Positions 8,762 through 34,373 of a DNA stretch of 64,000 nt are shown in pieces. Under the pieces are notes generated by a model. That model had not been told where the DNA came from and made no database searches. It was given only the letters and a program-made list of their open reading frames with translations. The stretch is from an uncultured Gammaproteobacteria bacterium. GTDB lineage: Bacteria; Patescibacteriota; Patescibacteriia; Magasanikbacterales; GCA-002688135. Numbering within the stretch: the stretch's first letter is position 1; every line of letters starts with the position of its first letter. The stretch is taken from NCBI GenBank assembly GCA_964536205.1, contig CAZHVT010000006.1, forward strand, positions 8,623 through 72,622, in the 5' to 3' direction. Both the position numbers and the translations under genes were made by a program.

Positions 8762-9391
8762 ATGAGTGCTTTGCAAGATCGATTTTGGAAGGGAGGGCAA
8801 TTGACTCCTGTTGGTGTGCGTTTCGTTCGTGAATGCACAGAGGCTGGGGAGGATGTAGATCAGATTTTGTCGCGCATGGGGAGTAATTGTCCTAGAAATG
8901 CGCGAGTCATGATTGGTTTGTATGTAAGGACTACTGGCAGTAATGGTGGGTCTGCGGATACAAGTTCGTTGCCGAATATGTATGTGGCGAATGGAAAGCT
9001 AACTAAGGTTGGTAAGGACCGAGTGCATGCGTTGGCCACAAAAAGCGCAACCATCACTGCGCAAGAGATTCTCGATGAAATGGGAATTACGGAGATTTCC
9101 GAACGATCGATGCGTGCGTTTTTGGCGCATGCTCCGTCGAGACGTCCTCCGAAGAAAAAGAAGAAGTCTCGTAAAAAGAGACCTTCGGCAGTTTCAGGAG
9201 CTTTTGTAGTTAACGGTAGGCTGACTGCGGCTGGAAAGGTGCATATGTATGAGTTGGCCGCAAAAAGCGCAACCATCACTGCGCAAGAGATTCTCGATGA
9301 AATGGGAATTACGGAGATTTCCGAACGATCGATGCGTGCGTTTTTGGCGCATGCTCCGTCGAGACGTCCTCCGAGAAAAAAGAAGAAATAA
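8762..9391 (+). CDS. hypothetical repeat protein (209 aa): three ~70-aa repeats each ending in a basic PPKKKK/PPRKKK tail
   Basis: Strong SD (aaggagg). The two C-terminal repeats are identical over 38 aa (AKSATITAQEILDEMGITEISERSMRAFLAHAPSRRPP). Confidence 0.6.
   Translation: MSALQDRFWKGGQLTPVGVRFVRECTEAGEDVDQILSRMGSNCPRNARVMIGLYVRTTGSNGGSADTSSLPNMYVANGKLTKVGKDRVHALATKSATITAQEILDEMGITEISERSMRAFLAHAPSRRPPKKKKKSRKKRPSAVSGAFVVNGRLTAAGKVHMYELAAKSATITAQEILDEMGITEISERSMRAFLAHAPSRRPPRKKKK
9040..9375 (+). repeat. perfect 114-bp direct repeat (9040-9153 and 9262-9375, period 222 bp) inside the 209-aa gene
   Basis: Identical nucleotide strings read at both positions. The flanking parts of each unit have diverged. 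Confidence 0.85.
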
Positions 9392-9396
9392 AACAT

Positions 9397-9452
9397 CGCA
9401 TCTACGGATGCGTTTTTTTAATTAAAAAATCCTGCGCCTCGTGGGGGCAGGA
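9397..9452. terminator. back-to-back terminators (cgcatc-tacg-gatgcg + T7 for the plus strand; atcctgc..gcaggat preceded by an A-run for the minus strand)
   Basis: Stem-loops with U-runs on the appropriate strands between convergent genes. Confidence 0.65.
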
Positions 9453-9458
9453 TTGTGT

Positions 9459-9953
9459 CTACAGATCTCTGTTGAATCTTTCCACTCGATCTTCAAGAAT
9501 GCGATAAAGATGTGTGGGTGTTAGGCCTTGGATATCTTCGAATTGTTCGAGAATGCTGCATGTTGCATCGAATCGTTCGAGTGCATCTTCGTCATTGATT
9601 TCTGCGCGTGCTGCGTCTATATCGTATTCAACTTCTTCTGTTCCAGCATGTTCGATCATGTCTGCGATTTGCAGGATGGCGAGGCACATTTCTTTGTCCA
9701 TCAAGCCGGCGCTGACAAACATCCATTCCATCTGATCCATTGCGTCTTCGTGTTGAGCTTTACAGGCCTGTGAGACTACAACGCCCATAAACATCCAGCC
9801 CATGAAATCGCATGTGTCCACTTCTTCTCGAGTTAATCCACGTGACCAGAATTCTGGATCATGTTGTGTAGGATCAGATTCTTCGTCTGAAGTCAGCAGG
9901 GCCAACAGTTTTTCAAAAAATTGTTCACTTAGGTCTTCGGTTTTCAGATCCAT
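9459..9953 (-). CDS. small highly acidic hypothetical protein (164 aa, rich in D/E)
   Basis: The ORF is trimmed to the ATG at 9953, with an SD (aggaga) 6 nt upstream. Its composition is strongly acidic. Confidence 0.55.
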   Translation of the reverse strand: MDLKTEDLSEQFFEKLLALLTSDEESDPTQHDPEFWSRGLTREEVDTCDFMGWMFMGVVVSQACKAQHEDAMDQMEWMFVSAGLMDKEMCLAILQIADMIEHAGTEEVEYDIDAARAEINDEDALERFDATCSILEQFEDIQGLTPTHLYRILEDRVERFNRDL

Positions 9954-11867: not shown

Positions 11868-13157
11868 ATGAAAAATATTATCCAGAAAATCTTGAGGATG
11901 TACGCGCGGTTGTTATTAAAGAAGTATCAACCTCGCGTGATTGGTATTACAGGTTCTGTTGGAAAGACGTCTGCTAAGCAAGCTATTTTGGCTGTTCTTG
12001 CTGATCAATATAGAATTCGTGGAACGATCAAGAATTATAACAATGAGATTGGAGTACCGCTTACCATTATTGGAATGAAGTCTGGTGGACGATCTTTGTT
12101 GAAATGGTTGATGATTTTTTTGCGTGCGAGCTGGATGTTGGTGAAACGAGATCCGAATTTTTCCGAAATGTTGGTTTTGGAAATGGGTGCTGATCGTCCG
12201 GGTGATATTGCGTATTTAATGGAGATGGCTCCTGTTGATATGGGTGTGATTACAGCGATCGGTGAGGCTCATTATGAATATTTTAAAGATGTAAAAAGTA
12301 TTAAGAAAGAGAAGGGGATGATGGTGACGAATTTGTCAGAGGGCGGGATTGCGATTTTGAATGTTGATAATGATCATGCAGCGAGTTTGGTTGGTGATGT
12401 TGCTGGTAGGGTTGTTACATATGGATTTTCTTCAGAGGCTCATGTTCGAGCTTCAGATGTGTCGATTGCGTATCAAGAATTGAATGGACGTTCATTTCCT
12501 ACGGGCGTTCATTTTAAAATTGCATATGAGGGTGCGACTGTTCCAATATTTTTGCCGGGTGTGTTAGGTTCTCCGCATATGTTGGCTGCGCTTGCTGGAG
12601 TTGCGGTTGGTGTTGCGCATGGAATGAATCTACTTCAGATTGCAGAAACACTGCGAAAATTTGAGCCGCCGTGTGGAAGAATGAGAATTTTGCGTGGTGT
12701 AAAAGAAACGATTATTTTGGATGATACCTATAATGCGTCGCCTCTTGCGATGATTATGGCTTTGGATGCGATGCGTGATATCGATTTGAATGATGGTGCT
12801 CGGCGTTATGCAGTTTTGGGAGATATGTTGGAGCTTGGGAAAATTACGCGTGGTGCGCATGAGGATATTGGACATCGATTGCAAGCATTTAATGTTGATT
12901 ATTTGATTACTGTGGGAGAAGCTGCTAAACATATTGCCGAGGCAGCGAGTGCGCATGGGTTTGATGAGGATCGAATTGCGAGATTTGATGATGCGGAAGC
13001 TGCGGGAAAATATTTGGAGGATAGAATTCATCCCGGAGATGTAATGTTATTTAAGGGTTCGCAAGGTGTTCGTTTGGAAAAAGCAGTTTTGGAAGTGATG
13101 GGTGAGCCGATGCGAGCGGATAAGTTGTTGTGTCGGCAAGATGAAACGTGGAGTTAG
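11868..13157 (+). CDS. murF: UDP-N-acetylmuramoyl-tripeptide--D-alanyl-D-alanine ligase
   Basis: Mur ligase P-loop GITGSVGKTS and DDTYNASP motif. It lies directly after the PBP gene, as in dcw clusters. Confidence 0.85.
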   Translation: MKNIIQKILRMYARLLLKKYQPRVIGITGSVGKTSAKQAILAVLADQYRIRGTIKNYNNEIGVPLTIIGMKSGGRSLLKWLMIFLRASWMLVKRDPNFSEMLVLEMGADRPGDIAYLMEMAPVDMGVITAIGEAHYEYFKDVKSIKKEKGMMVTNLSEGGIAILNVDNDHAASLVGDVAGRVVTYGFSSEAHVRASDVSIAYQELNGRSFPTGVHFKIAYEGATVPIFLPGVLGSPHMLAALAGVAVGVAHGMNLLQIAETLRKFEPPCGRMRILRGVKETIILDDTYNASPLAMIMALDAMRDIDLNDGARRYAVLGDMLELGKITRGAHEDIGHRLQAFNVDYLITVGEAAKHIAEAASAHGFDEDRIARFDDAEAAGKYLEDRIHPGDVMLFKGSQGVRLEKAVLEVMGEPMRADKLLCRQDETWS

Positions 13158-13258
13158 ATAATTACCAATGACCAATGTCGGAGTCTCCCTAGGATGAGAG
13201 ACGAATCTATGGATTATCGCTTTACGATACATTCATTTGAAAATTGAAAATTAGTTCT

Positions 13259-13330
13259 GGTCCCATCGTCTAGTGGTTAGGACGCATGGTTCTCATCCAT
13301 GTAACGGGGGTTCGATTCCCCCTGGGATCA
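13259..13330 (+). tRNA. tRNA-Glu (anticodon CUC)
   Basis: Cloverleaf folded by hand: 7-bp acceptor stem (GGTCCCA / TGGGATC), anticodon stem CATGG/CCATG with loop TTCTCAT, T-arm GGGGG-TTCGATT-CCCCC, discriminator A. No encoded CCA. Confidence 0.75.
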
Positions 13331-13560
13331 TGAAATCACATTTACCTTACTGGTTGATTTGATATGTATACGATGCATAACGGGGGTTCCACCCCACTTG
13401 CTCGTTCCTCGCTCGGGGGTATCGTAGAGATTCCCCCTGGGATCATGAAATCAAATTTACCTTACCGGTTGATTTGATATGTATACGATGCATAACGGGG
13501 GTTCCACCCCACTTGCTCGTTCCTCGCTCGGGGGTATCGTAGAGATTCTCCCTGGGATCA
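13331..13560 (+). repeat. two 115-bp tandem direct repeats, each ending with a copy of the tRNA-Glu 3' end (gattccccctgggatca) and carrying a 39-nt insertion in the T-loop-like part
   Basis: The units 13331-13445 and 13446-13560 differ at 4 positions. Removing caccccacttgctcgttcctcgctcgggggtatcgtaga restores the tRNA T-arm exactly. Confidence 0.8.
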
Positions 13561-13605
13561 TGAAGAAAAGGCATCCGAGTAGGATGTTTTTTTGAAGGAG
13601 ACATT

Positions 13606-14643
13606 TTGATCATTATAATTGCCCAACTTGTTTTGATGAGTGAATGCAATACATACAGCGATTGTCCTGACGGGTTAGTATGCGTTGAGAATGTGTGCGT
13701 GAAACCGAAACCATTATGTGGATCCTGTTGGAAATCTGTGCAGTGTATGCCGAATTATAAGTGTTTGGGGTACGATGGTTTGGGTGGGATGTGTTTGCCG
13801 ATGGGGTGTGTTGTCGATGATGATTGTCCTCTTGGCATGAAGTGCATTTCGATTGGTGACGGTAATACAGCTTGCTGGGTGAAGCCTGCGATGGATGTGT
13901 GTGTTGGTACGACAATTTGGAAGGCTAATACGTGCGGCATGTTATATACTCCGTTTATCTACTGCGGAATGACAGACAAAACTTGCGTGCATGGAGATTG
14001 TTGTAAACGAGATTGCACAACGAAGCAGTGCGGAGAAGATGGGTGTTATGGGTCTTGTGGTATGTGTGGGATGGGGCAGGCTTGTATCGATCATAACTGC
14101 ACGACATGCATTCCGGGTGTGATTGATTATGAGATGTGTGGCAGTGTGTGCTCTGCGAAAATGCGAGTTTGTGATGTGAATGGTTCGTGGGGATTGTGGT
14201 CTACATGTAAGGATGATGCACTGTGTACGCCGGCTGATGGATTTCCAATTGAGTGTCATGCAGCAGAATGTCGTCCAGGTCATTCGTTTTCTGATTCGTG
14301 TGGAAATTGTGGAACGATGTCTATAATTTGTAATGGCGAATGTCGATGGGAAAGTGGAAGTTGTGTAAATGAAGGCCTGTGCAAAATTGGAGAAACTGCA
14401 CCTTGTGAGCAAAATGGAAAGCGAACCTGCACTGATATGTGTCGATGGAGTAAGTGCATTGTTTCTGCAGATGCAGCACCTCGAATTGTTGCAGAAGATC
14501 ATGTTATCAAAATTCCAATTCAGCGTCCGAAACCAAAAGCATCTGTAAAAGTTGTTCAAGGTTGTCAGATGTCACATCATAGTCATCAGTTTTCGATCAT
14601 TATTTTATTGTGTTGTTTGTTGGTTTTACATACTCGGCATTAA
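13606..14643 (+). CDS. cysteine-rich repeat protein (about 17% Cys; CxxDxDCPxGxxC-type modules) with a hydrophobic C-terminal tail
   Basis: Long ORF with an AAGGAG SD 5 nt before a TTG start (the first ATG is 10 codons downstream). Cys spacing is repeated throughout. Confidence 0.55.
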   Translation: MIIIIAQLVLMSECNTYSDCPDGLVCVENVCVKPKPLCGSCWKSVQCMPNYKCLGYDGLGGMCLPMGCVVDDDCPLGMKCISIGDGNTACWVKPAMDVCVGTTIWKANTCGMLYTPFIYCGMTDKTCVHGDCCKRDCTTKQCGEDGCYGSCGMCGMGQACIDHNCTTCIPGVIDYEMCGSVCSAKMRVCDVNGSWGLWSTCKDDALCTPADGFPIECHAAECRPGHSFSDSCGNCGTMSIICNGECRWESGSCVNEGLCKIGETAPCEQNGKRTCTDMCRWSKCIVSADAAPRIVAEDHVIKIPIQRPKPKASVKVVQGCQMSHHSHQFSIIILLCCLLVLHTRH

Positions 14644-14669: not shown

Positions 14670-15146
14670 ATGTTTTTCTTCAAAACGAATTACCAGAAAT
14701 CGCAGTCTGCGACAAAGGTGAAATTTAAGGTTCCGAAAGAAGCTGGGAAATTGGCTTTGCAGCTTTTGAAGTCAAAGGGTTCAGAAGAGGAGCGTCAGGA
14801 ATTGTCTGATGATTTGTTGGATGTTTTAGCAGATTGTGCCCGATTGGATATTGTGAAATTGAAGATTTCTGCGACAAATCAATATCATAAAAAAAGAGGT
14901 GGGCGGGTAGTGTATAAAAGATATGGGTATTACAAGCCTGATACAAAATACATTTATATTCAGAATCGAACTGCTGTTCGTGGGCAGATTTTAGCGCCGA
15001 AAACGTTTATTGATACGTTACTTCATGAGTGGATGCATCACTATGATTCGCAGAAATTGGGACTTAATTCGATCCATACAAAAGGCTTTTATATGCGCAT
15101 TAAAGATTTAAAAAAGAAGTTGGGTCTTCTTGACAATGTGACCTAA
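14670..15146 (+). CDS. small HExxH zinc-metallopeptidase-like protein (SprT/WLM-like motif TLLHEWMHHYD)
   Basis: ORF trimmed to the ATG at 14670. Single HEWMH motif. Basic N-terminal half. Confidence 0.45.
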   Translation: MFFFKTNYQKSQSATKVKFKVPKEAGKLALQLLKSKGSEEERQELSDDLLDVLADCARLDIVKLKISATNQYHKKRGGRVVYKRYGYYKPDTKYIYIQNRTAVRGQILAPKTFIDTLLHEWMHHYDSQKLGLNSIHTKGFYMRIKDLKKKLGLLDNVT

Positions 15147-15189
15147 ATGTTATATTCGTGATATAATGAATTCTATGGAGGTAAGATAT

Positions 15190-15912
15190 ATGCAAGACGG
15201 AAAAACATCAGTTCGAATTTTTATGGCGTCAGTATTATTTGTAATACTCGGCCTGACTGCGATGGTTATCGTACCTGTTTTTGCGTCTGCAGCGGGGCGT
15301 GCTGGTGAGGCTATCGCTGTTCAGCCTAAAGAGCCGTCAGGTTTTCTTGGTCAGGTTTTTACACTGGTTGGTGATTCGGTTAAAAATGCAGTTACGTTTA
15401 ATAATGAGAAGCAAGCTGATTTGTATGTAGAGCAAGCGAAAGAACGTATGCAGGAAGCAGCTTGGTTGGAAGCTTATGGCACGAGTGATAAAGATGAAAA
15501 GAAGAAGGATAAATTATTAGAGAAGGCTGGGAAATTGCAGGATAGGGCGACTTCAAAAATTGAAAAAGCTGCGGCGAAAGGAAAGGATGTTTCATCTGTT
15601 CAGGGTAGATTGCAAGCTAACTCTGATCTTTTAACAGTGATTGAAGATCCTGGGGTTGTCGATGCGCCTCCAGTAGAGGAAGATGCTCCGATTATTTTTA
15701 CACTTCCTACATTTACTTTTCCCGTTTTGAATTTGTTGGATTTGCATGCTGCAATTGAAGCTATTGAGCAAGATGATCGTGCACATCCTGATATGAAGGT
15801 GTATTTGGGATCTGTGAAAACAAAAGTGAAAAGTAGAATTGATAAAGGTGAAACTACAGTTGATCGTAATGCATCAAAAAAGCCGGCAGAGACCGGCGGA
15901 GGTGGGCGATAG
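15190..15912 (+). CDS. hypothetical membrane-anchored protein with a Lys/Glu-rich coiled-coil region
   Basis: ORF trimmed to the ATG at 15190 (SD ggaggtaag; extended -10 tgatataat at 15139-15147). N-terminal TM helix. Confidence 0.55.
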   Translation: MQDGKTSVRIFMASVLFVILGLTAMVIVPVFASAAGRAGEAIAVQPKEPSGFLGQVFTLVGDSVKNAVTFNNEKQADLYVEQAKERMQEAAWLEAYGTSDKDEKKKDKLLEKAGKLQDRATSKIEKAAAKGKDVSSVQGRLQANSDLLTVIEDPGVVDAPPVEEDAPIIFTLPTFTFPVLNLLDLHAAIEAIEQDDRAHPDMKVYLGSVKTKVKSRIDKGETTVDRNASKKPAETGGGGR

Positions 15913-32432: not shown

Positions 32433-34373
32433 ATGATTGAATACGATCACGATCACGAAAATGAAATCATCTACTTTGGTGAAACTAACTTCCGTAACAA
32501 GAAGCGGCGTTTTGGTATTAAGACAGATGATCGTCGCAGGCACATGTACATTGTGGGAAAGACTGGTATGGGTAAGACAACGTTACTTGAGAATTTGGTG
32601 ATTCAAGATATTCAAAAGGGTCATGGTGTTGCGTATTTGGATCCTCACGGAGATACAGCTGAGAAGATTTTGGATCATATTCCATCTCATCGTATTAATG
32701 ATGTCATTTATTTTAATCCTGGGGATTTGGGTAATCCCGTAGGGTTTAATGTTTTGGAGTCTGTTGATCCTGATAAAAAGCATTTAGTGACCGCTGGATT
32801 GATGGGGGTTTTCAAAAAGATTTGGCCGGATGTTTGGTCTGCTCGCATGGAATATATTTTGATGAATGCGATTATGGCGTTGCTTGAGGTTCCTGATGCG
32901 ACACTTTTGGGAATTTCGAGGTTGTTGGCCGATAAGACATATCGTGCGCAGGTTGTTGAGCGTATCACTGATCCGATTGTAAAAGCTTTTTGGCGTGATG
33001 AGTTTGGGAATTACACAGATGATTTTGCAAGTGTAGCTGTTGCACCAATTCAAAATAAGGTAGGACAATTTTTGTCTGCATCAATTATTCGAAATATTGT
33101 AAGTCAGGTAAAATCCACGTTTGATATTCGAAATGTTATGGATGAGGGAAAGATTCTGATTGTGAATTTGTCGAAAGGTAAGGTTGGTGAGGATAATTCA
33201 TATTTGTTGGGTGGTATGATTGTTACGAAAATTCAGCTTTCTGCGATGGAGCGTGTTGATATTAAAAATGAGGATGATCGTCGTGATTTTTATTTGTATG
33301 TTGATGAGTTTCAGAATTTTGCGACAGAAGCTTTTGCGGTGATTTTGTCAGAGGCTCGAAAGTACCATTTGAATTTAATCATGGCACATCAATATATTGC
33401 ACAGCTTGAGAATCAAGGTTCGACAGTTATTCGTGATGCTGTGTTTGGAAATGTAGGTACGTTGGTTGCGATGCGAGTTGGTGCTGCTGATGCAGAATTT
33501 TTGGAAAAAGAATTTGAGCCGCGATTTACGATGAATGATTTAGTGAATCTTTCCAAGTTTACGGTGTATTTACGACTGATGATTGATGGTGCTGCAAGTG
33601 AGCCGTTTTCTGCAAATTCGTTAGCGCCGATTTCAAAGCCAACAGGTAGTTATGACAAAGTTATTCGAGCGTCGCGTGAGCGTTTTGCGGTGAAGCGTGA
33701 TGTTATGGAGAAGAAGATTCAAAAATTTTCTGAAGCTATGCAAGGTTCTATGGTTGAGGCTAAGGCTGCAGCAAAGGCTGCGAAGGCTGCAAAAAAGAAG
33801 CCGAAGATTGTTGCAAAGTGTACTGATTGTGGAAACGAATTTAATCCTCCATTTCGTCCGACAGGAGATAGACCGGTGTATTGTCCGGATTGTTATGAGT
33901 TGCGAAAGCAGGGTATTACGCCAACTGCGAAAAATCATGTTCACAAAGCTGGAGCTCCGCCAGATAAATTAGATGCTCCAGTAACTCGAACAGATGCTCC
34001 GCCTGCTCGTACGGTACCAACTCAATCAACTCCGCCTGCGTCTCAAGCAAGTAGCCCTAGTTCATCTCAGCGGTATGAACAACGGCAGCAACGTCGCAGT
34101 CAGCGAACTCAATCTGATCGAGCGGCTAAGCCAATCGCAAGACCTCGTCCTCAAGCATCAGATACTGCAGATGAAATTAGTTTAGCGGATGCTCTAAAGA
34201 GTGCTCCTCAACCTAAGAAAAAACAGAGGGATCAGCGTAATTCTCGAACATCATCACCTCAACAACCATCTCAATCGCGTCATCATTATAAGAAAAACAA
34301 TCAGTCTTTTGATAAAAAAGATGATTCATCCTCCCCAAACAAGATGCAGCCTGGAGATGTTGTGAAATTTTAG
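32433..34373 (+). CDS. P-loop ATPase of the TraD/TraG/VirD4 (type IV coupling protein, AAA_10/DUF87-like) family with C-terminal CxxC..CxxC zinc ribbon and low-complexity tail
   Basis: Walker A GKTGMGKTT, Walker B LYVDEFQNF. Zinc ribbon CTDCGNEF...CPDCY. Confidence 0.65.
   Translation: MIEYDHDHENEIIYFGETNFRNKKRRFGIKTDDRRRHMYIVGKTGMGKTTLLENLVIQDIQKGHGVAYLDPHGDTAEKILDHIPSHRINDVIYFNPGDLGNPVGFNVLESVDPDKKHLVTAGLMGVFKKIWPDVWSARMEYILMNAIMALLEVPDATLLGISRLLADKTYRAQVVERITDPIVKAFWRDEFGNYTDDFASVAVAPIQNKVGQFLSASIIRNIVSQVKSTFDIRNVMDEGKILIVNLSKGKVGEDNSYLLGGMIVTKIQLSAMERVDIKNEDDRRDFYLYVDEFQNFATEAFAVILSEARKYHLNLIMAHQYIAQLENQGSTVIRDAVFGNVGTLVAMRVGAADAEFLEKEFEPRFTMNDLVNLSKFTVYLRLMIDGAASEPFSANSLAPISKPTGSYDKVIRASRERFAVKRDVMEKKIQKFSEAMQGSMVEAKAAAKAAKAAKKKPKIVAKCTDCGNEFNPPFRPTGDRPVYCPDCYELRKQGITPTAKNHVHKAGAPPDKLDAPVTRTDAPPARTVPTQSTPPASQASSPSSSQRYEQRQQRRSQRTQSDRAAKPIARPRPQASDTADEISLADALKSAPQPKKKQRDQRNSRTSSPQQPSQSRHHYKKNNQSFDKKDDSSSPNKMQPGDVVKF

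Follow-up and report, generated by a model that had tools for sequence, protein, structure and literature searches.

The tRNA-Glu(CUC) locus

The window, by which we mean the whole 64-kb stretch of DNA analysed, holds a single tRNA gene, tRNA-Glu(CUC), on which ARAGORN and Rfam agree. We used the limits given by Rfam (13259–13330, 72 nt); ARAGORN places the same tRNA at 13258–13331. The features around it are as follows.

11868–13157, plus strand: murF, encoding a Mur ligase (Pfam); 5′ neighbour of tRNA-Glu(CUC) in all nine lineages examined (adjacency judged on loci L001–L005, L014, L015 and L098–L100)
13259–13330, plus strand: tRNA-Glu(CUC), 72 nt, no encoded CCA (ARAGORN; Rfam RF00005, 63.7 bits, E 3e-13)
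13331–13445, plus strand: unit 1, 115 nt; TGAA and hairpin A (about 13335–13363), linker, block A, insert, block O
13378–13389, plus strand: block A of unit 1, TAACGGGGGTTC, equal to tRNA positions 45–56
13390–13428 (unit 1) and 13505–13543 (unit 2), plus strand: 39-nt insert, CACCCC...GGGGGTATCGTAGA, interrupting the T-loop-like part
13429–13445, plus strand: block O of unit 1, GATTCCCCCTGGGATCA, equal to tRNA positions 57–73
13446–13560, plus strand: unit 2, 115 nt; block A 13493–13504, insert 13505–13543, block O 13544–13560
13561–13593, plus strand: probable intrinsic terminator of the tRNA-Glu transcription unit, TGAAGAAAAGG, hairpin, TTTTTTT; stem detected by search
13606–14643, plus strand: Cys-rich ORF, 345 aa, TTG start, GGAG 7 nt upstream, weak match to DUF7107
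14670–15146 (listed from 14610): small ORF with an HEWMH motif, no Pfam or NCBIfam family

Tandem Repeats Finder called the array at 13314–13564 with a period of 115, 2.2 copies, 97% matches and a score of 481. The parent of the repeated blocks is the tRNA itself, in which block A occupies 13302–13313 and block O 13314–13330. Both units run in the same order, from TGAA through hairpin A and a linker of 15–19 nt to block A, the 39-nt insert and block O, which reads GATTC(C/T)CCCTGGGATCA and is again followed by TGAA. The repeat GATTC(C/T)CCCTGGGATCATGAA thus recurs at 13314, 13429 and 13544, beginning each time between T-loop positions 56 and 57. The two units differ at three positions (13339/13454, C/A; 13351/13466, T/C; 13434/13549, C/T), and the change from C to T at 13549, in block O of unit 2, preserves a G-U pair. 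The 39-mer of the insert occurs twice in the window and in none of 100 shuffles of it, and nhmmer with a profile of the unit returned no further copies in the window or in 880 kb of related loci. The original prediction had described a tRNA-Glu(CUC) gene followed directly by two 97%-identical 115-bp units, each ending with the tRNA 3′ end and carrying a 39-nt insertion, with a Cys-rich ORF and an HExxH-type protein downstream; this description of the sequence was borne out throughout.

Past the array lies the hairpin CATCC-GAGTA-GGATG (13572–13586), which together with its T7 run spans 13572–13593. The flanks of this terminator match those of the tRNA terminator in the related locus L002 (TGAMGAAAG...TTTTTTTGAAGG). 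In the gap between murF and the tRNA, GAGTCTCCCTAGGATGAGAGA at 13181–13201 is 67% similar to block O and contains a small inverted repeat (GTCTC...GAGAC); it is either a chance resemblance or a very decayed additional copy. Immediately 5′ of the tRNA, TTGAAAA is repeated 2.3 times (13237–13252), and TTTGAA stands at the equivalent place in the related locus L001, which also has a good promoter-like site (TTGACG-17-TATCAT) 15 nt 5′ of its tRNA. Two short reading frames over the array were set aside: a 10-aa ORF, ATGAAATCA...TGA, at the unit starts, in which both unit differences are non-synonymous and for which L001 has no ATG, and a minus-strand ORF of 68 aa (13443–13649), which overlaps repeat and terminator and was treated as spurious.

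The locus is a conserved cell-wall cluster of PBP, MurF and tRNA-Glu. PBP and MurF lie 5′ of the tRNA, and the Cys-rich protein, the HExxH protein and a DUF5667 protein 3′ of it; TsaE, FolD and SHMT come next on the opposite strand, and further on are a Mur ligase, MurB, SecA and SecDF. The best named relatives of MurF belong to Patescibacteria/Magasanikbacteria at about 50% identity, with only three lineages above 57%. With 78% identity between window and L001, the HExxH protein is more conserved than MurF (71%), which marks it as a strongly constrained clade-specific protein. The DUF5667 gene (15166–15912) is without a similarly sized counterpart in L001, where the space from the HExxH gene to tsaE has only a 57-aa call (9290–9463); this is the one real difference in gene content near the tRNA, and its distance from the repeats is 1.6 kb.

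The GGAG of the Cys-rich ORF starts 3 nt past the T7 run, and the spacing is equally tight in L002. This leaves no room for a promoter between terminator and ORF, so expression of the Cys-rich gene seems to depend on read-through from murF/tRNA-Glu. A promoter-like match at 13592–13619 overlaps the start codon of the ORF. Elsewhere in the window, 19 kb from the tRNA, an ORF at 32433–34373 has a treble-clef zinc finger along with coupling-protein domains of the TrwB/TraG type. No other gene seen resembles a conjugation or secretion component, and no recombinase lies near this ORF. GC skew is strongly positive (0.15–0.32) over most of the window and falls to about 0 or below at 52–60 kb, coinciding with a switch of genes to the minus strand.

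The array in related lineages

A search of a collection of 5.8 billion proteins restricted the Cys-rich protein to three lineages, which differ in the number of units.

Window lineage (window, L096): two units; tRNA, two units, terminator, Cys-rich gene
L001 lineage (L001, L006, L013): one unit of 120 nt; gene order as in the window
L002 lineage (L002, L003): no unit; tRNA, directly a hairpin with T7, then the Cys-rich orthologue

In L001 and L013 the order is PBP-MurF-tRNA-Glu, one unit, terminator, the orthologues of the Cys-rich and HExxH proteins, and TsaE-FolD-SHMT. MurF identity is 71–72% in every pair of the three lineages, and that of the Cys-rich protein 47–52%. Since the lineages are equidistant by MurF, inheritance of the array with loss in L002 is indistinguishable from gain after L002 had split off. 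More distant lineages (50–57% MurF identity) retain the adjacency of MurF and tRNA-Glu(CUC), and no units were present in L005, L098, L099 and L100, whose sequence continues past the tRNA; L014 and L015, which end inside the tRNA, were left out of this count.

Pattern scans of genome and metagenome collections widened the set little. The exact window-type pattern had no match in GTDB genomes. A looser pattern gave seven matches there, of which only the L001 contig is real, the other six being chance occurrences in GC-rich genomes, and the sole match in the metagenome scan was a JGI contig identical to L001. Unit-bearing material in the collections searched therefore comes to three unit sequences from two lineages, and with only two such lineages the evidence from conservation and covariation is thin. 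A dispersed miniature repeat of the MITE, REP or PATE kind was rejected: copies lie solely at the tRNA-Glu locus, and the collection scans gave those two lineages only.

The contig CAZHXK010000013.1, which carries L001/L006, is titled 'uncultured Gammaproteobacteria bacterium', yet its gene order and its MurF (71%) match the window, whose MurF relatives are Patescibacteria. The label of this bin, or the bin itself, looks wrong.

Each unit follows its own tRNA

The unit of L001 has the build of those in the window: hairpin A (core TTACCTTA), linker, block A, a 43-nt insert and block O. Both inserts begin with CACCCC and end with TCGGGGGTATCG.AGA. Their alignment outscores 3000 of 3000 shuffles, with the signal coming from the two ends; the middle is CU-rich in both species, and its conservation as sequence is not significant (p=0.16). 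The unit 5′ parts are weakly similar between the species (p=0.03), and four pairs of hairpin A show compensatory double changes. The flanking intergenic DNA is barely alignable or not alignable at all (tRNA leader, p=0.04; spacer after the array, p=0.19). In L002, the hairpin TTGCCTTACCGGCAA with T7, a genuine terminator, aligns with hairpin A of the units.

Within the blocks, four positions distinguish the tRNA of the window from that of L001 (C48/T48, G49/C49, C65/G65 and G68/A68), of which 49 and 65 are pairing partners, and the four bases past the discriminator are TGAA in the window and TATA in L001. In each genome the unit matches its own tRNA at all four positions and in the four bases past the discriminator. 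This matching is the most unusual feature of the locus. The shared insert and hairpin A argue that the unit arose once; it follows that the blocks must either have undergone homogenisation against the resident tRNA or be under selection to match it.

Predicted fold of the units

The minimum free energy (MFE) fold predicted for each unit consists of three hairpins, A, B and C, rather than a tRNA. In the model, hairpin B (GGGG-UUCCA-CCCC) forms when the CACCCC of the insert closes with block A, and hairpin C, with a stem of 11–12 bp (CUCGGGGG-U-AUC / GAU-U-CCCCC-U-GGG), takes its 5′ strand and loop from CGGGGGTATCGTAGA of the insert and its partner strand from block O, leaving AUCA as a 3′ tail. 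The loop of hairpin C would be GUAGA in the window and GAGA in L001, and the CU-rich stretch ACTTGCTCGTTCCTCGCT of the insert is predicted to be single-stranded between hairpins B and C.

If a tRNA-like T stem of block A with block O is enforced, the fold lies 8–10 kcal/mol above the three-hairpin minimum, a cost on which a tRNA-like fold of the unit was rejected as improbable. The description of the units as a T-loop with a 39-nt insertion is consequently apt for the sequence and probably wrong for the structure. ARAGORN and Rfam RF00005 found no tRNA in the units, which lack a cloverleaf, and no Rfam family matched them even at E up to 10. The latter search included T-box RF00230, and a T-box leader was rejected, GAGA in the loop of hairpin C and UGGU being isolated coincidences. 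As regards an archaeal-type intron in the T-loop, with its bulge-helix-bulge motif, the organism is bacterial (Patescibacteria) and no tRNA 5′ half is present in the unit. In L001, hairpins A and B and two others score as terminator-like (six sites versus 0.5 expected).

Further pairings were considered and discarded. An 11-nt pairing of the leader (13220–13230) with the loop of hairpin C is about what chance would give, and the match that L001 shows at this place, CGAGAG, is direct instead of complementary. Antiterminator pairing of the units with the final hairpin amounts to only 5 bp and is not conserved. A primer-binding site, on the minus strand against the tRNA 3′ end, was also rejected: it lacks the TGG that would pair with CCA, and there is no reverse transcriptase among the screened ORFs.

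Integration and cargo

The original prediction read the units as scars of serial tRNA-targeted integration and excision, and the downstream genes as remaining cargo. One feature of att sites was found, a direct repeat of the tRNA 3′ end that starts in the T-loop, a sublocation at which integrases cross over. The remaining observations speak against the scar. No integrase, resolvase or transposase was detected with Pfam among 43 ORFs screened across the 64-kb window, and the non-repeat sequence that separates the tRNA-tail repeats is only 98 nt. GC content at the locus (0.44 and 0.41) is ordinary compared with 0.39–0.48 across the window. As for a viral or phage counterpart, IMG/VR had no exact match to a corresponding attP, GGGGGTATCG(N)AGAGATTC; a looser viral pattern gave 79 matches, all unrelated, and blastn against 50,697 phage records returned none. 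Comparison with the lineages that have one and no units showed neither foreign DNA nor a break of synteny at the repeats.

The cargo part of the scar reading is refuted outright. Orthologues of the downstream genes occupy the same position in the lineages with one unit and with none; as both the Cys-rich and the HExxH gene occur with units and without, they are conserved residents, and as judged from these sequence comparisons the Cys-rich ORF is a conserved neighbour and not cargo. The original prediction had also named what would count against it, namely relatives carrying the same repeats in a conserved non-mobile context, with the units a processed part of a longer tRNA precursor. A relative with the same repeat in such a context exists, which bears out the first of these two points. 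A repeated tRNA 3′ end alone is therefore insufficient to call an integration scar or to name the neighbours cargo.

A proposed inherited local duplication

We favour, with moderate confidence, an origin of the array by local tandem duplication of the tRNA 3′ part and the trailer hairpin, vertically inherited, homogenised, variable by slippage and transcribed as a trailer. This reading is preferred because the scar is at odds with the findings on integrase, cargo, synteny, composition and element counterparts, and because a neutral scar would diverge as the spacers do. The duplicated module would have comprised tRNA-Glu from the variable loop to the discriminator, four trailer bases and the hairpin that follows. 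In the copies, the T-arm region would have been rebuilt into two hairpins (B, and C with its G(U)AGA loop) with the CU-rich linker between them, and the module would already have existed before at least two Patescibacteria species diverged from their common ancestor. Template switching or gene conversion over short tracts may have held the tRNA-like blocks to the sequence of the resident tRNA, and the 21-nt direct repeats could, by slipping or recombining unequally, shift the copy number among 0, 1 and 2.

The units (13331–13560) lie between the tRNA and the locus's only T-tract hairpin (13572–13593), and no promoter-like site was found within them. This arrangement makes it most likely that the units are produced as a 3′ trailer on the tRNA-Glu precursor, which would be removed when the 3′ end of the CCA-less tRNA matures. 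In L001, hairpin A precedes a T-run and scores as terminator-like, so the unit there may be transcribed by read-through only. The anatomy of the array, its conservation and synteny, its concerted pattern and the lack of signs of a mobile element are observed, and the mechanism of duplication, gene conversion, co-transcription and processing are steps that we infer.

Two further observations count against duplication. The blocks of identity are only 12 and 17 nt, short for conversion of the RecA type, and the homology breaks exactly midway through the T-loop, where integrases cross over. If the duplication reading is right, the repeats represent an inherited, concertedly evolving appendage of a tRNA gene within a core cell-wall cluster; if the units are neutral, they are a compact example of gene conversion on blocks of 12–17 nt.

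Alternative explanations

It is possible, though unlikely, that the units are a functional tRNA-derived small RNA or a cis-acting leader; an array of tRNA-derived small RNAs, which the original prediction gave as its alternative, would be consistent with the data. The RNA would be about 115 nt with three hairpins, cut from the tRNA-Glu precursor, and would bind a target through its exposed CU-rich linker or through the loop that contains GAGA, the candidates being a tRNA-binding protein, purine tracts resembling Shine-Dalgarno sequences and the CUC anticodon loop. As a leader, the units would adjust the level of read-through into the Cys-rich gene, whose start immediately follows the terminator. 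Conservation is what recommends a function. Between species, the non-tRNA parts of the unit have diverged less than the intergenic DNA on either side, compensatory changes maintain hairpin A, hairpins B and C are retained in sequence apart from the GAGA/GUAGA difference in the loop, and the linker is CU-rich in both species. The unit has moreover been kept despite 21-nt direct repeats that ease its deletion, and the tight spacing of T-tract and GGAG, with expression that seems to need upstream transcription, suits a small RNA or leader. This conservation is, however, drawn from two lineages, and it does not extend significantly to the sequence of the linker. The units match no Rfam family, and L002 has no unit despite the same neighbouring genes. 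In L001 a terminator-like hairpin stands before the unit. By inspection, anti-Shine-Dalgarno pairing of the linker with the downstream ribosome-binding sites comes to only 4–5 bp per species and was discarded.

A more specific proposal, speculative and in our judgement improbable, is that the unit is an undescribed tRNA-derived non-coding RNA module whose rebuilt hairpins and linker are under selection. It would be made in one or two copies from the tRNA-Glu precursor, would owe its match with the parent tRNA to a role as mimic of, or partner for, tRNA-Glu or the enzymes that process tRNAs, and would perhaps gate read-through into the Cys-rich gene. Were the units stable RNAs, they would be a rare bacterial small RNA assembled from rearranged pieces of the parent tRNA, in a group, the Patescibacteria, whose RNA biology is almost unexplored.

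That the units are relic att sites is quite improbable. Here an element, or a gene-less 'mini-CIME', would have targeted the T-loop of the ancestral tRNA-Glu; its interior would then have been deleted, leaving the fused P′ and P arms flanked by two crossover-segment copies, and the remnant would later have been duplicated. Like att core repeats, GATTCCCCCTGGGATCA(TGAA) starts midway through the T-loop and runs beyond the end of the tRNA, and copy number differs among lineages. In addition, a conserved non-tRNA motif (GGGGGTATCG.AGA) adjoins the repeat upstream; real attR sites such as the Dehalococcoides ssrA direct repeats have a conserved non-gene motif in just this place (PMC3146451), which counts against the duplication reading. 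Set against these likenesses are the lack of an integrase among the 43 ORFs in 64 kb, the lack of genes between the repeats, the unbroken synteny and the absence of the motif from the viral and phage sequences searched. A neutral scar should also decay like its intergenic neighbours, yet in both species the blocks still have the same sequence as the resident tRNA, and a single integration would not predict block A (tRNA positions 45–56) upstream of the insert.

Degenerate full-length tRNA-Glu pseudogenes, that is, tandem duplicates of the whole gene with an insertion in the T-loop, are very improbable. The arithmetic is suggestive, as the unit without its insert measures 76 nt in both species, a tRNA plus a 4-nt spacer, and in the MAFFT alignment the 5′ part of the unit falls against the D-arm region (TAATTGGTAGG versus, in L001, TAATGGTTAGG). 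The resemblance between the 5′ parts of unit and tRNA nevertheless lacks significance (window, p=0.43 and 0.61; L001, p=0.08), and the 5′ hairpin fits the L002 terminator better. ARAGORN and Rfam detect no tRNA in the units, and the energetic cost of the T stem also stands against this reading.

Collapse or expansion of a repeat during assembly can practically be dismissed: short-read assemblies do often break at the array (L016 stops within unit 1, and L097 begins where unit 2 ends), but an ENA assembly from another sample (L096) reproduces the locus base for base (100% identity over 5,038 bp), with both units and their three unit-specific differences, and the one-unit version is the same in an NCBI MAG and a JGI contig. 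The identity of these assemblies also means that population variation is absent from them. Short-read contigs of L014, L015, L016 and L097 end inside tRNA-Glu or the units, making this a recurrent assembly breakpoint, and such breakage may conceal similar arrays in other lineages.

Comparison with known systems

Our literature search found no description of T-loop insertions or of similar arrays in Patescibacteria. The nearest parallels lie in four systems. The external transcribed spacers 3′ of tRNAs, such as 3′ETS-leuZ of E. coli, are non-coding RNAs that lie between a tRNA and its terminator and are freed by tRNA 3′ processing. The units share that position, and by analogy release by 3′ processing would follow; in contrast to 3′ETS-leuZ, the spacer here is itself assembled out of copies of the tRNA 3′ part and repeats in tandem. 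As in mascRNA/MALAT1 (RF01684), a T-arm-like hairpin with the 3′ strand of the acceptor could draw tRNA-processing enzymes. RF01684, however, matches only the true tRNA (22 bits versus a threshold of 42.5) and not the units, for which three separate hairpins are predicted.

Pseudo-tRNAs beside islands, such as tRNA-Other of Bacillus cereus (PMC3399842), are likewise tRNA-derived, non-decoding and adjacent to a tRNA locus. The units differ in having neither a cloverleaf nor an island and in being partial copies with an internal insertion.

A resemblance in form also exists to the attL/attR repeats of tRNA and tmRNA genes, as in the ssrA islands of Dehalococcoides (PMC3146451), where a copy of 17–21 nt of the gene 3′ end, starting from the T-loop, lies downstream in direct orientation with the conserved motif just upstream of it. 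Unlike those repeats, the ones described here are 115 bp apart, with no genes between them and no integrase module, synteny break or compositional shift, and the array is conserved at the orthologous site in another species, where it tracks that species' own tRNA.
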